Positions 206 to 6,200 of a stretch of 64,000 nucleotides of DNA are shown piece by piece. Positions within the stretch are counted from its first letter, which is position 1. Each line of letters begins with the position of its first letter. Made by a program: the position numbers. This DNA is from Escherichia coli (GTDB lineage Bacteria; Pseudomonadota; Gammaproteobacteria; Enterobacterales; Enterobacteriaceae), in the NCBI RefSeq assembly GCF_013315695.1, contig NZ_CP054353.1; one strand, written 5' to 3'.

Positions 206-3200
206 GCATAATCCTCTTTACTCTTAAAGTAGTAATAAAATGAGCCTTTAGGGACATTGGCATTTTTAACAATGGCATCGACTCCCGTCGCAAGAAAACC
301 ATTCTGCGTCAGCAGTTCAAGGCCACTGCGGATCAGATCATTACGAGTATCTGCATAGGTACTTTCTGTCTTTCGCGGCCTTCCCCGGCCACGATTTTCG
401 CCTGTCATGACCCATCTCCTACATTTTATTAACGCAAAAGAATAAGTGATTTTGCGCGAGAGCTTCAATCAGTTTATCCCCGCAGTGGCAAAGTGTTCGC
501 TTTTGCCGACTGGACAGTGGCAGTGCCTGTCTCTACTGCGCCATCGCTGAACAGTGCAGAATTAGCAACGTTTGCTTTTGGCACAAAGCATACGCCCATT
601 CTCACGCGAATGCTTTGCCCTTGACTTGCCAACAACCGAATTGCTTGCTCTGCAGCTATGTTTTTTTATTAGAATATTCGCCACTAAATAAATTATAATA
701 AGTTGATTTTATTAGATATCTATCAGAATCTATATGGTCAGCACGAGTTGCATGCTCTAATGTTTCAAATGCCAGGGTATGTGCGGCTTCAGCAAATATC
801 TCAGGCCAACCTTTACTCAGCATCGACAGTCCTTTAAGGACTCTTATCTGAATCTCCCTCATACTGGCACCATCGCGCGCGACAGGTGAGAAAAAGTCTT
901 CCAGTAGATCGTTATTCTGAAGTGGTGCAACATGTACTGAAGGATATTTCACTTCTATTTCATCAGATTTATTCTGCGCGTAAGTGGAAAGTATACGAAC
1001 ACCTCTGCCAATGACATCAATGGCGGTTCCAGGATCGTTCACTGCAGGGGAAAGGGCCCGGCAGGCTATTTCGGCCATGACGCTAAGACAAAATCGAGGA
1101 TCCTGAGCAAATGAACGTGCATCCGAGACAATAATCGTCTCAAGTAAATCGGTGTTGATTGACGACTCCTGGCCCTGACTCAGGTACAAAACTGGCATGG
1201 ACGGATGTATGAAACTGCCTGGCTGCGCCACGAGGTATACATGACGGGGATCATTGGTCAGCAGCTTGCTAAGTTTCACCATATCAATATATTCAACATA
1301 GCCAATCTTCTTCGGATAAACTGCAACCGTTCCTTTCGGCTGTTCATTGTTCTCAAGCCATGGATATCCGCCGAGACAGGGATTTCTTGCTCTCGCAATA
1401 AATGTTTCGATGGCCGCCTGTTCTACTTGTGCCGTTGTCTCACCAACCCTCCCCAGAGAGGTCAAATGCTGTATCCAGCGAAGCAATGTGATGAGGATTA
1501 AGGCAATGACAACCAGTGTGACAATGAATAAAATGACTCTCCCCCTTTCTCCATAAGCTCCCATATTGAGGGCAATAATCCCTACCAGACTGAAGAGAAA
1601 AGAACCGATGAAGGTGGCCAGTACATTTTGTGTGGTGACGTCTTCAACAACTAAACGCGTAGCTCTGGGAGTCACATTAGTAGTGGCTGAACCGTAGGCT
1701 GTGACCATGATACTCAGCGAAAATGTGGTCACTGCCAGCATACTCGATGCCAGTATGTTCAGAATGTTATCGACTGCTTCCGCACCAACCTTCACGGAAA
1801 CCGACTCAGGTATCATTGATTTAAAAAGAATTGATAAAAGGGCCGTTATTATCGCGACAATTGCGAATAACGTTGCCCTGAACCATAGTTTTTTAATTGT
1901 CTGCTTCAGCATCCATTTCCAGCGTGAAATCATTCTGCATTCCCTCATATTGCGGCCGGGATAATAATTGCCGCCCCCAGGACGGCATGTTGCTATTAAC
2001 GAACCAGGTGCAGGAAGTGCAGGTGTTTTTCGTACTGGTCCAGTATGTCATTAATCAGCTGTTCCTGGTTCCAGCCCATCACATCATAATTTTGACCGCC
2101 TTCTTTGAGATAAACCTCAGCGCGATAATATCGATGTTGTTCAGTCTGCTGCTCATCATTATCCATTGCGGCGAGCGCGAAGGTCGGTGAGATATACCCG
2201 CGAAGCCTCACTTCATATATAAAATTCAGCTCGTTGCCCAAATCGACTTCAAGACGAATACGATCGTCGACTGCATCACTAATGTGGCTTATCGTCCCCT
2301 GCTTGTTCAGTTCCTCCTGAACCAGCGTCATGGCAGGCTGGATAACGTCGTCCATAAAACGTTTCACAAGAGATCGCTTCGGCAGATACGCGATATTGCG
2401 TAACCTTCTCTGCCAAGGAATTGGGTTACGTGCAGCCGTAGGAGCAATTGTCGCCATGCTCAGGCTTTCACGCTTGGTCAAATCCCGGCGCAAAGCTTTT
2501 AAAAGTCCGTATATAGATATTAGTAAGATCACTGAGAAGGGCAATGCACTCGCTATTGTCACCGTTTGCAGCGCACTTAGCCCTCCGGCAAGGAGAAGCG
2601 CAATTGCAACAATGCCCATAAGCGAGGCCCAGAATATTCGCTGCCAGACGGGTGTGTTTGCCACTCCACCTGATGCCAGAGTATCCACAACCATTGCCCC
2701 CGAATCAGCAGACGTTACAAAGAAGACGATGACCATCGCCATTGCAATGAATGACAGCACAGAAGAGAACGGGAAATGCTCCAGGAAATTAAACAGGGCC
2801 AGCGCCACATCCTGCTGAACAGTATTGGCGAGGTCTGTGGCCCCCTGGTTCATAATGAGATAGATCGCGCTGTTACCAAACACCGTCATCCACATTAGCG
2901 TAAAACCCGCGGGAACAAACAGCACGCCGGTGACAAACTCGCGAATGGTTCGCCCGCGGGAGACCCGTGCGATGAACATCCCCACAAACGGCGACCATGA
3001 AAGCCACCATCCCCAGTACAGTAATGTCCAGCCCCCCAGCCAGTTGCTCGACTTGGGCTCATACGCGTAAAGGTTGAACGTTTTACTCACCAGTTCCGAA
3101 AGATAACCGCCCGTATTTTCCACAAATGACTTCAGCAGAAGCACGGTTGGTCCCAGACACAGGACCAGCGCCAGGAGCAACAAAGCCAGACCCAGATTGA

Positions 3201-6200
3201 GTTCAGACAGGATACGTATTCCCTTATCCAGACCGGACACCACTGAAATCGTCGCTAACCCCGTGATGACCACGATCAGAATTACCTGCACCGTTTCATT
3301 GATGGGCACCCCGAAAAGATGGTTCAAACCGGCATTCACCTGCAAAACACCGTAACCCAGTGATGTCGCAACGCCAAAGACCGTGCCTATAACAGCGAAA
3401 ATATCAACCGCATGTCCTACAGGTCCGTATATGCGATCGCCAATAATGGGATAGAGTGCGGAGCGCAGAGTTAAAGGCAGACCGTGACGGTAACTGAAGA
3501 ACGCCAGAATCAGCGCCACAATGGCATAAATTGCCCATGCGTGCAGTCCCCAGTGGAAAAAGGTCAGACGCATTGCTTCCTTAGCTGCCGCAACGGTTTC
3601 TGGAGTGCCAACGGGTGGCGAAAGATAATGCATTACAGGTTCGGCAACGCCAAAGAACATCAGGCCGATCCCCATCCCTGCCGAAAAAAGCATCGCAAAC
3701 CAGGAGTGGTAGCTGAAATCAGGCTGCGCATGGTCCGGGCCCAGCTTGATATCACCGTAGCGTGAGAGTCCAAGGAACGTGACACTCAGTAAAATCAGGG
3801 CCACAGCAAGGATGTAGAACCAGCTGGCATTCGTGAAGATTTGTTGCTGAAGTAGTTTAAAATTTTTGTCGGCGACATCCGGGAATACGGCGGCAAAGGC
3901 GACAAGAAGGAAAATTAGCAAAGCAGATGTAAAGAATACCGCTTTGTTAATCTGACTTGTAGACTTCTTTGGGATTGTATCATTTTCACTCATAATCATT
4001 TATTCCATTAATTAAATTCGCACTGGATAGAAGGTACTACCTCTCACAAAGTAGCAAAGTTCAACTGGCTATGCGGCGTTAATCGTAATGCATGGTGGAA
4101 TGTTGAGGTGTACTGGCAATAGCGGACACTACCATTTGTTCTTTTTTTAAGCGGCCATCTGATGATATTTTTCCCTGAAGGCTGCCGGGGAGATATTCCC
4201 CAGACGAGAGTGACGACGCTGACGATTGTAGAAAATCTCAATGTATTCCCGTATTACTGAGATGGCTTCATCCCGGTTATTAAAACGATAGTGGCTCAGG
4301 CTCTCATTTTTCAGCGTTCCCCAGAAGCTTTCCATCGGAGCGTTGTCGTAACAGTTACCTTTACGCGACATTGATGTTTTCAGACCAAACTGCTCCTGTA
4401 TGACCCGGTAATCGTATGCGCAGTACTGTGAACCTCGATCAGAGTGGTGGATTAGCCCGGCAGGTGGGCGCTGGCTCCTGAGCGCCATAAACAGGGCTTT
4501 ACCTGTCAGCTCTTTTGTCATGCGCTCTCCCATGGCGTAGCCGACAATTTCGCACGTATAAACATCTTTGATGCCAGCGAGGTACAACCATCCCTCCTGT
4601 GTGGCAACATACGTCAGGTCCGCCACCCAGACCTGATTTGGTGCTGTAGGAGCGAACGTCTGGTTCAGCAGATTTGGCGCAACTGGCAGATTGTGGTTCG
4701 AGTTCGTAGTCGCTCTGAACTTGCGTTTCTGCTTACAGCGTAGCCTTAGCTCCTTACGAAGACGTGCCAGTCGGTCACGACCAACGATGATGCCATTCTC
4801 TGCCAGCTCCGTCTGGAGCCGCCGGGTTCCATATGTTTCGCGAGTGCGGATATGTGCCACCTTAATCTCCAGTTTTAGCCGCTCATCACTTTGTTTTCTG
4901 TCTGAGGGTTCATGCTGTACCCAGTTGTAATAACCGCTCCTGGATACACCAAATACCTGACACATCGCTTCAATGGGAAATTGTTGTCGCCATTGTTCGA
5001 TTAACGCGTATTTTTCAGCGACTCCTGTGCAATTTAATATATCTCGCTCAAGGCGAGCTTCATTTAACGCCTTACGCAGTTGCAGAATTTCAGATTCCAG
5101 TTCAGCCACCGTGCGGGAACCAGGAGTACCGAGCCCTTTTCTGGCGGCGGTAACCCATTGTCCTAAAGTGCCTTCAGGAAGAGATAATCGGGAAGCGCCT
5201 TCACTGATCGAAAGTTGATTTTCAAGAACCGTTCTGACAGCTTCGGCTTTGAACTCTTTAGAGTAACGTTGGGTTTTTCTGCTCATTATTAGCTCCTTCT
5301 GATGCCATTCTATTTCAGGAAGGAGTGTCCGTTAAACTCAGGCTACCTCATTGGTTCCCACTACTTATTTGGTGGACACCACTTTGTCTAATTCGTCAGA
5401 TTCTGACCAGACGGTTCAGGCTGTACGCTTACAAACAACTAGTGGAAATACTTGTACTTTATAATTTCAAGGGTACGGGTCCGCTTCGTTTGATTTGCGT
5501 GTTTTTAACAATTTTAAAACCCAGACATACTGTTCCGGATGTGGCCCCACCAAAATTTCCACTGTTTTGTTCATTTGTCGGGCAATCATTTTATTGTCCG
5601 CGCTGGCAATGCAAGCATCCATTGGTGGCCGAATTTCAATAGTCAGGAGATGTTTTTTTTCATCATAAACCGGGAAAAGTGGTATAATCATAGCCTGACT
5701 GATGTTCATCAGACGTCCAATGATTGGTAATGTCGCTTTATAGGTCGCAAAAAAATCAGCAAATTCACTGTATTCAGGACCATGATCCTGATCTGGGAGG
5801 TAATATCCCCAGTATCCCTGGCGTACTGACTGAATAAATGGTTTTATCCCATCCTCCCGGGCATGTAAGCGCCCCCCGAATTTACGCCGTACTGAATTCC
5901 AGACATAATCAATCACTGGATTTCGTTGCTGATGAAACATGGCGGCCATTTTTTTTCCCTGAGCTGCCAGCAACATTGCAGGAATATCCACGCTCCAGCC
6001 ATGGGGAACCAGAAAAATCACATTTCTATTATTGTGTCGAATTTCCTCAAGAATTTCGAGGCCTTTCCAGAACACTCGTTTCTGGAACTTTTCCGGACCA
6101 CGAATTGCCAGTTCTGCCATCATCACTATGGATTGCAATGCTGTGGCAAACATTTTGTCGACAATTATTTCCCGTTCTGTATCACTCTTTTCTGGGAAAC

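Follow-up and report, generated by a model that had tools for sequence, protein, structure and literature searches.

What is the gene pair at the beginning of a 64,000-nucleotide stretch of the Escherichia coli contig NZ_CP054353.1 (assembly GCF_013315695.1; the whole of this stretch is called the window below), and do its two members belong together? Three open reading frames (ORFs) of 667, 430 and 92 aa follow one another on the minus strand within positions 1–4000. A first-pass annotation had described them as co-directional genes for a BCCT transporter, a DUF2254 membrane protein and a truncated TetR regulator, apparently forming a small osmolyte-uptake unit. We consider it quite probable that the locus is a chromosomal betU osmoprotection module flanked by insertion sequences (IS), and this judgement includes the mechanism proposed below for BetU and the transcription of the pair; the role suggested for the DUF2254 protein, taken by itself, is much less certain. 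The gene pair as such is already known: the first report of BetU dates from 2004, and the pair appeared in 2011 as the cargo of the transposon Tn6062. The novelty implied by the annotation is thus lost, while its statement that the locus is neither betTIBA nor the cai locus stands.

Tn6062 is an IS1 composite transposon on the IncHI1 PST6 plasmids of Salmonella Typhi H58, and Holt et al. (2011, PMC3139670) give its cargo as "two putative transporters": SPAP0105, and SPAP0106, which is betU. When a 3,405-bp piece holding both coding sequences was cloned into pACYC184, S. Typhi BRD948 could grow in Luria–Bertani medium with 0.8 M NaCl, and with the empty vector it could not (PMC3139670); the idea of an osmolyte-uptake unit is therefore borne out by an equivalent fragment. 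BetU is a glycine betaine and proline betaine uptake system first obtained from pyelonephritis E. coli, in what the Tn6062 paper relays of the original description (Ly et al. 2004, as cited in PMC3139670), and the same description is found in PMC13300293.

The gene-specific part of the Tn6062 reverse primer matches positions 666–685 of the window with one mismatch, at the 3' end of the DUF2254 ORF, and a 14-nt core of the forward primer matches positions 4051–4064, which gives a primer span of 3,402 bp against the published 3,405 bp. The full 22-mer forward primer has no match in the window at up to three mismatches and the window therefore carries a different allele; the full primers likewise found no match within three mismatches in the Klebsiella or E. 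coli IncFIB plasmid alleles, and the plasmid pMAK1 does not carry the module. The same two genes thus stand in the same order with a nearly equal primer span and with IS elements on both flanks. In contrast to Tn6062, which lies on a plasmid between two IS1 copies, the pair is found here on a chromosome between IS600 and an IS100 remnant, and the alleles are a few percent apart. The frequency is also similar, at between about one quarter and one third of E. coli, and the published phenotype is osmotolerance via betaine uptake. In its first description betU was reportedly flanked by putative insertion sequences and present in about a third of E. coli isolates. The equivalent gene of the plasmid pBIC1a is annotated as "Secondary glycine betaine transporter BetU", and the RefSeq names for the pair are "choline BCCT transporter BetT" and "DUF2254 domain-containing protein".

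The features of the locus, in window coordinates, are the following (PGAP is the Prokaryotic Genome Annotation Pipeline).

1..139, plus strand: IS100kyp istB remnant, the left-hand IS flank, from the PGAP annotation of the 100%-identical chromosome NZ_LR898874.
190..408, minus strand: probable acuR stump of the TetR family, 72 aa, within an open frame of 92 aa (468..190), with TetR_N and AcuR matches.
656..1948, minus strand: DUF2254 gene (PF10011), ORF of 430 aa, likely coding sequence 656..1933 (425 aa), corresponding to SPAP0105 of Tn6062.
1969..1987, minus strand: GC-rich hairpin between betU and the DUF2254 gene, a terminator-like scan match at a conserved position.
1996..3999, minus strand: betU, a BCCT-family glycine betaine/proline betaine importer of 667 aa, assigned from Pfam, NCBIfam, the 8ybq alignment and the Tn6062 primers and literature.
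4000..4102, minus strand: betU upstream region of 103 bp, a constant companion of the pair and the presumed location of the promoter.
4103..5330 (outer coordinate approximate), minus strand: IS600 (IS3 family), the right-hand IS flank, which abuts the upstream edge of the unit; its ORF is 4147..5286, named IS600 by PGAP.

All three co-directional genes were recovered as the first-pass annotation had drawn them, with decisive Pfam scores. The BCCT profile (PF02028) matches the 667-aa ORF over the entire model (positions 1–485 of 485; E 1.8e-198, 660 bits against a cut-off of 27). The DUF2254 assignment also held in the profile search: PF10011 covers residues 20–374 of the 430-aa ORF, model positions 3–366 of 368, with E 5e-93 and 312.3 bits against a cut-off of 28.8. 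TetR_N matches the 92-aa ORF with E 4.6e-13. The BetU product would be 665 aa long if translation began at ATG 3993, as in the PGAP annotation. For the DUF2254 gene the most likely start is ATG 1933, because a GAGGGA Shine–Dalgarno sequence lies 7 nt upstream of it, the N-terminus MISRW is conserved in homologues and PGAP gives 425 aa. The spacer between the two genes would therefore be 62 bp; the 47 bp reported earlier is correct as a mechanical distance from ORF to ORF, and not as the distance to the likely start. The TetR gene most likely starts at ATG 408, leaving a 72-aa stump 247 bp past the DUF2254 stop.

Positions 656–4102 make up a fixed block of 3,447 bp (betU, the 62-bp spacer, the DUF2254 gene and the 103 bp upstream) that is found end to end in hundreds of plasmids, where homology stops exactly at position 4102. 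The block is matched by 1,536 PLSDB plasmid records (1,208 of them conjugative), from Klebsiella (1,264), Enterobacter (92), Escherichia (71), Citrobacter (37), Salmonella (34) and Shigella (21), and the window allele shares 96–99% nucleotide identity with the plasmid alleles. Positions 1–4102 are 100% identical to several E. coli chromosomes, and 1,369 of 5,426 complete E. coli genomes (~25%) contain at least 80% of this segment. On an E. coli IncFIB plasmid (L092) IS1 terminal repeats bound the block on both sides, and on Klebsiella IncFIB/IncFII plasmids (e.g., L091) IS1 lies directly upstream of it. The window does not have two flanking IS1 copies: IS600 stands on one side, and the IS100 remnant with the acuR stump on the other. 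It carries the cargo of Tn6062 without the transposon itself.

In the E. coli chromosomes, with IS600 immediately next to it, and in the Klebsiella plasmids alike, the block ends upstream at one and the same nucleotide, 4102. In L091 the IS1 element appears to begin within 1–2 bases of this edge (8450/8451), and in L092 (6447) about 39 extra bases precede the IS1 end, so that different IS elements share nearly the same boundary.

The transporter consists of a transmembrane (TM) domain and a C-terminal domain of about 150 aa. It scores 541 bits with TIGR00842 (BCCT; cut-off 407.55) and aligns over its full length with the Pseudomonas syringae BetT structure 8ybq (E 9.5e-194), the C-terminal domain being included through residue 667. 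Its identity is 42% to E. coli K-12 BetT and 49% to a 710-aa BCCT ORF of the Sinorhizobium meliloti pSymB, which we presume to be BetS (published length 706 aa). The tryptophan prism W331, W332 and W335 and the TM3 residue G108 of BetU align with W327, W328, W331 and G105 of P. syringae BetT (PsBetT). The acidic residues of the proton site, in contrast, are missing, D108 of E. coli BetT (EcBetT) being replaced by G112 and D210 of PsBetT by S213. The TM3 sequence AGMGIGLMF is identical to that of BetP, the Na+/glycine betaine symporter of Corynebacterium glutamicum, so that BetU has the BetP-type G-M-G-I-G motif without an acidic residue, and TM4 (FHWGLHAWAIYAIV in BetU, FHWTLHPWAIYAIV in BetP) has the same W/W/Y box. 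The substitution G153D in BetP, at the last glycine of the TM3 motif, is reported to lead to H+-coupled choline transport (Perez et al. 2011). Overall, BetP is a far more distant match (330 bits; 8ybq, 649 bits), and it has a short, helical C-terminal tail where BetU has a folded domain.

Since the proton-site residues are not conserved and TM3 and TM4 match BetP, BetU is most likely a BetS/BetP-like, Na+-coupled betaine importer. Such a protein would take up, together with Na+, a quaternary-ammonium osmolyte bound in the tryptophan box, and its C-terminal cytoplasmic domain would probably tune this activity. Among known systems, the glycine betaine/proline betaine transporter BetS of S. meliloti (Boscari et al. 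2002), taken to be the pSymB ORF, shares with BetU the 49% identity over the full length, the long C-terminal domain, the AGMGIG motif of TM3 and the TM4 and TM8 aromatic residues, but this ORF has no DUF2254 gene within 5 kb. The BetT choline/H+ symporters of E. coli K-12 and P. syringae (8ybq, PMC11323884) share the BCCT core with the C-terminal domain, the tryptophan prism and the equivalent of G105, whereas BetU has no counterparts of D108 and D210, is unlinked to betIBA and is reported to transport betaine rather than choline. The "BetT choline" label is probably over-specific and misnames the substrate in RefSeq, in PGAP and in many plasmid records; this over-specific annotation has probably spread to thousands of records.

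Between the two genes, a hairpin of 8 bp with six G–C pairs (1987–1969) starts 9 nt past the betU stop and is followed by AAUUAUUAU. Judged on the window sequence only, this fold does not stand out (z −0.10). Hairpins occupy the same position in four other loci (L004, L009, L013 and L014), and their arms have changed yet remain complementary. Clean U-runs follow the hairpin in L009 (986–1010) and L014 (5951–5985; z −3.4), making them textbook terminators, and the U-run is broken in the window and in L013. Only some 35 nt separate the hairpin from the Shine–Dalgarno sequence of the DUF2254 gene. A simple sigma-70 scan found no promoter-like site in the betU–DUF2254 gap and none in the upstream region 4000–4102, and Rfam detected no RNA family within positions 1–5400. 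In published RNA-seq data for pBIC1a, a Klebsiella-type plasmid, in E. coli the expression values (reads per kilobase per million, RPKM) are 54 for BetU, 16 for the gene that follows it on this strand and 4 for the one thereafter; the gene layout of pBIC1a matches that of L091.

Because the hairpin is weak in the window and no promoter-like site follows it, attenuated read-through across the gap appears to be the likeliest arrangement, the hairpin probably being a leaky terminator or attenuator. A single promoter upstream of betU would drive both genes, and the hairpin would stop part of the transcripts and so reduce the amount of DUF2254 protein. The ratio of BetU to DUF2254 protein may differ between hosts with the strength of the terminator. 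The co-transcription asserted in the first-pass annotation is plausible on these grounds (the 62-bp gap, the scan result and the RPKM values of 54 and 16 on a related plasmid), but given the conserved hairpin it is attenuated at best.

The pairing of the two families was examined in the 80 closest species-level loci of DUF2254 homologues, which are 47–93% identical to the protein of the window. A BetU/BetS-type BCCT gene is directly adjacent and on the same strand in 16 of the 80, in both Gamma- and Alphaproteobacteria and in both gene orders, and these BCCT-adjacent proteins fall into at least four separate clades of the DUF2254 tree. Enterobacteriaceae have betU before the DUF2254 gene. In Pantoea and Mixta the DUF2254 gene comes first and is followed by a BetU orthologue of 79–81% identity, the DUF2254 protein itself being about 51% identical to that of the window. 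The DUF2254 gene also precedes the BCCT gene in two Aurantimonadaceae, in one of which (Aureimonas) the gap is 24 nt, and in Devosia the BCCT gene comes first and overlaps the DUF2254 gene by 4 nt (ATGA). All DUF2254-adjacent BCCT proteins have in common the AGMGIG motif, the W/W/Y box of TM4 and the long C-terminal domain. Among the 142 immediate neighbours at 73 loci the leading Pfam families are CLC (9), BCCT (8, and a ninth that the ORF caller overlooked), Na_H_Exchanger (6) and NhaA (5), several of these counts reflecting synteny within Pseudomonas or Rhizobiales, which overstates the number of independent events; genes for MscS-like, TrkH and SBF proteins turn up repeatedly one position beyond these neighbours.

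The similar synonymous divergence of betU and the DUF2254 gene (dS 0.09 vs. 0.07, 0.26 vs. 0.18 and 0.31 vs. 0.27) indicates a shared history of both genes. Against orthologues with unsaturated dS, the ratio of nonsynonymous to synonymous divergence (dN/dS) is 0.03–0.04 for betU and 0.14–0.22 for the DUF2254 gene. Both genes are intact and under purifying selection, and the DUF2254 protein evolves 4–5 times faster than BetU. On the evidence of these loci, the link between the two families is real but facultative. The DUF2254 protein is probably not an obligatory transporter subunit, because the presumed BetS gene of pSymB has no DUF2254 gene within 5 kb. What is new here is the recurrent DUF2254–BCCT adjacency, the CLC, NhaA and cation/proton antiporter (CPA) neighbours elsewhere, the purifying selection, and a confidently predicted fold that has no solved relative.

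Two arrangements seen in the sampled loci may be recorded at this point. In seven Pseudomonas loci (L031, L048, L056, L065, L066, L067 and L083, at about 7280) the DUF2254 gene is convergent with a CLC chloride-channel gene, with 1–6 bp between the stops, and on the other side NhaA, a CPA exchanger or TrkH is often encoded, which makes a compact ion-homeostasis cluster. In the Pantoea and Mixta loci L019, L021, L022 and L063 (7263–7354) a conserved spacer of about 70 nt (…CGCTTTTACTCTTYCATACTGATTGTTACATTTGGTCTTCATTCACGTT…) lies between the DUF2254 gene and the BetU orthologue; it might serve the transporter gene as promoter or operator.

The description of the membrane partner as uncharacterised is accurate. 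Its match to PF10011 (IPR018723, predicted membrane protein) is full-length, and the family, with 5,829 clusters at 50% identity (E ≤ 0.001), has no assigned function; the literature that we found on it is limited to a predicted 3_1 knot or slipknot in its AlphaFold models (PMC11184937), a guess from 2012, based on gene neighbourhood, of a guanosine phosphorylase (PMC3377989) and a STRING-derived "mechanochannel" label (PMC12440251). An AlphaFold2 model built with 110 diverse sequences reached a predicted local distance difference test score (pLDDT) of 95.1 and a predicted template modelling score (pTM) of 0.91. It has a basic N-terminus, TM helices at residues 16–36, 51–86, 99–123 and 131–157 and, after the fourth helix, a cytoplasmic alpha/beta domain of about 260 aa that extends to residue 421; by the positive-inside rule both termini would be cytoplasmic. 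Conservation is strongest at two sites, namely the polar faces of TM2 (SSMLAVTTFSL) and TM3 (DxxTQNxLATFxG), and a group of charged residues within the soluble domain (RxFxQDPRF, SPAxNDPGTA, ARDG). A sequence search against all PDB chains returned nothing up to E = 10, and comparison of the model with solved structures gave no resemblance beyond generic helical repeats. PADLOC had no defence-system match for either BetU or the DUF2254 protein.

A small TM bundle with conserved polar faces, a large cytoplasmic domain and neighbours that transport Na+, H+, Cl− or osmolytes lead us to propose, tentatively, that the DUF2254 protein, by prediction located in the inner membrane, is an ion-conducting or ion-sensing accessory in salt adaptation or ion-osmotic homeostasis. 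In the module it might, for example, balance the salt load as an ion-conducting or ion-sensing protein. A wider possibility, which we regard as speculative but not idle, is that DUF2254 proteins form an unrecognised class of inner-membrane ion-homeostasis proteins, channel-like or sensing, with four TM helices and a knotted cytoplasmic domain, which would partner BetU/BetS, CLC, NhaA and CPA transporters and contribute to salt tolerance from the Tn6062 and Klebsiella plasmid module. In a few E. coli database proteins (P0050, P0083 and P0108) a DUF2254 fragment is fused to TrkH, to a periplasmic-binding-protein-like domain or to a fimbrial usher; most likely such fusions arose by rearrangement through IS elements or by frameshift and are not true architectures.

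The TetR gene was the one member of the proposed unit that fell away. The best NCBIfam match of the stump is AcuR, the regulator of acrylate utilisation (E 6e-26), with 90.9 bits against the NF051457 cut-off of 247, a low score explained by the truncation to 72 aa (92 aa in the open frame). Elsewhere in E. coli (L001) this position holds a full-length allele that scores 266.2 bits against the same cut-off, and there, at 7239–8204, the intact acuR gene is followed by two fragments of acuI, which encodes acrylyl-CoA reductase. In the window the stump is cut at position 190, beside the IS100 istB remnant. No TetR gene stands beside the pair at any other locus examined, in other genera or on Klebsiella and E. 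coli plasmids. The TetR gene is in all likelihood a relic of a decayed acuR–acuI module for acrylate detoxification, and it is not part of the betU unit. A BetI-like role for it was considered and rejected, the full-length allele being an AcuR equivalog with acuI remnants alongside.

Some other accounts of the same locus have to be weighed against its reading as a betU module. The database names would make the transporter a BetT-type H+/choline symporter that supplies choline to the chromosomal betBA genes for betaine synthesis: it passes the cut-off of the NCBIfam BetT subfamily NF007399 (751 bits against 695, model 5–663 of 675), its best solved relative is P. syringae BetT, aligned along the whole length with the C-terminal domain, RefSeq calls it "choline BCCT transporter BetT", and the choline-contacting tryptophan prism and G108 are kept. 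We find this improbable nevertheless, as both proposed acidic residues of the proton site are gone (G112, S213), TM3 AGMGIG and the TM4 box are those of the Na+/betaine transporter BetP, the presumed BetS is closer than EcBetT (49% against 42%), and the literature on the equivalent gene reports uptake of betaine and proline betaine. Rather doubtful, too, is the separate transcription of the two genes, in which the hairpin would be an efficient terminator and the DUF2254 gene would have its own promoter or be effectively silent. The hairpin is indeed conserved and has the form of a textbook terminator in L009 and L014, and the published RPKM values fall from 54 to 16 across the junction, but the ~35 nt between hairpin and Shine–Dalgarno sequence contain no promoter-like site, a promoter inside betU would face the same hairpin, and the U-tract of the window (AAUUAUUAU) is broken; moreover, the downstream gene has a transcript signal (RPKM 16) and is under purifying selection, and the Alphaproteobacterial pairs overlap or nearly touch.

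The DUF2254 gene might, alternatively, be a functionally unrelated passenger captured in one mobile block. The adjacency in Enterobacteriaceae is a single inherited block, BetS-type BCCTs operate without an adjacent DUF2254 gene, most DUF2254 loci have no BCCT gene nearby, and the DUF2254 protein evolves 4–5 times faster than BetU; this account is nonetheless unlikely in our judgement, for distinct DUF2254 clades show the adjacency, with either gene coming first, Pantoea and Mixta have a BetU orthologue of 79–81% identity downstream of a DUF2254 gene whose product is only 51% identical, the Alphaproteobacterial genes are separated by 24 nt or overlap by 4 nt, and a dN/dS of 0.14–0.22 speaks of constraint. 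As to the TetR protein as the regulator of a three-gene unit, its gene comes next downstream in the same orientation, and a TetR-family repressor, BetI, does serve BCCT loci such as betTIBA. However, the gene is that of an AcuR equivalog and not of BetI, acuI remnants lie alongside, it stands 247 bp away with its own Shine–Dalgarno sequence, it is truncated to 72 aa here, and it is missing next to the pair in the Klebsiella and E. coli plasmids, in other genera and in Tn6062-like copies, which makes such a role hardly credible.

The reading of the locus as a betU module has its own weak points. The protein passes the cut-off of the choline (BetT) subfamily and misses that of the NCBIfam betaine BCCT equivalog NF047988 (592.3 bits against 650), a model that is confined to the core and was presumably built on other betaine BCCTs. 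The ion coupling of BetU is read from motifs, expression and transport in this strain are predictions, and the hairpin could terminate most transcripts. The pSymB ORF is presumed to be BetS, in line with its length (710 aa against 706 aa published), and the original description of BetU is given here as relayed by citing papers. In about 60% of the DUF2254 loci neither immediate neighbour encodes a transporter, and three distant DUF2254 homologues lie in unrelated or truncated contexts on short contigs. Finally, the osmotolerance experiment used both genes together, and the contribution of the DUF2254 gene to it could be nil.

The betU module is carried by about 1,500 sequenced plasmids, mostly large conjugative ones of Klebsiella, some of which also bear silver, copper and arsenic resistance operons; IncHI1 plasmids of H58, the dominant multidrug-resistant clone of S. 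Typhi, carry it as well, and so does one in four complete E. coli genomes. The module belongs to the few plasmid cargoes with a proven fitness benefit other than antibiotic resistance, namely growth at high salt and, by extension, in urine. The public label "choline transporter BetT" probably gives the wrong substrate and obscures the connection with published work on BetU, and the conserved linkage with BCCT genes provides a concrete motive to examine the DUF2254 half of the module by itself.

The surroundings of the module on the chromosome NZ_LR898874 form an IS-rich island. IS100, IS110 and IS66 remnants and a grp propanediol cluster lie on one side of the locus; on the other side IS600, an operon of a shf-like deacetylase gene, capU, virK and lpxM, and the fec operon are found. 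In the window, a sequence resembling the terminal inverted repeat of IS600 ends at about 4103, and the ORF 4147..5286, which has HTH_Tnp_1 and rve domains by Pfam, is called a frameshifted IS600 by PGAP. This copy (4147–5286) is one continuous ORF of 379 aa and not two frames joined by a programmed frameshift; its transposase may have arisen by fusion or internal deletion. From 5467–8519 onward the window contains a chromosomal copy of an operon that is best known from the virulence plasmids of Shigella and enteroaggregative E. coli: a second lpxM gene (msbB2-like, 5467–6411), virK (DUF535, 6476–7426), capU (7431–8519) and a polysaccharide deacetylase gene, followed by the fec iron-dicitrate operon.

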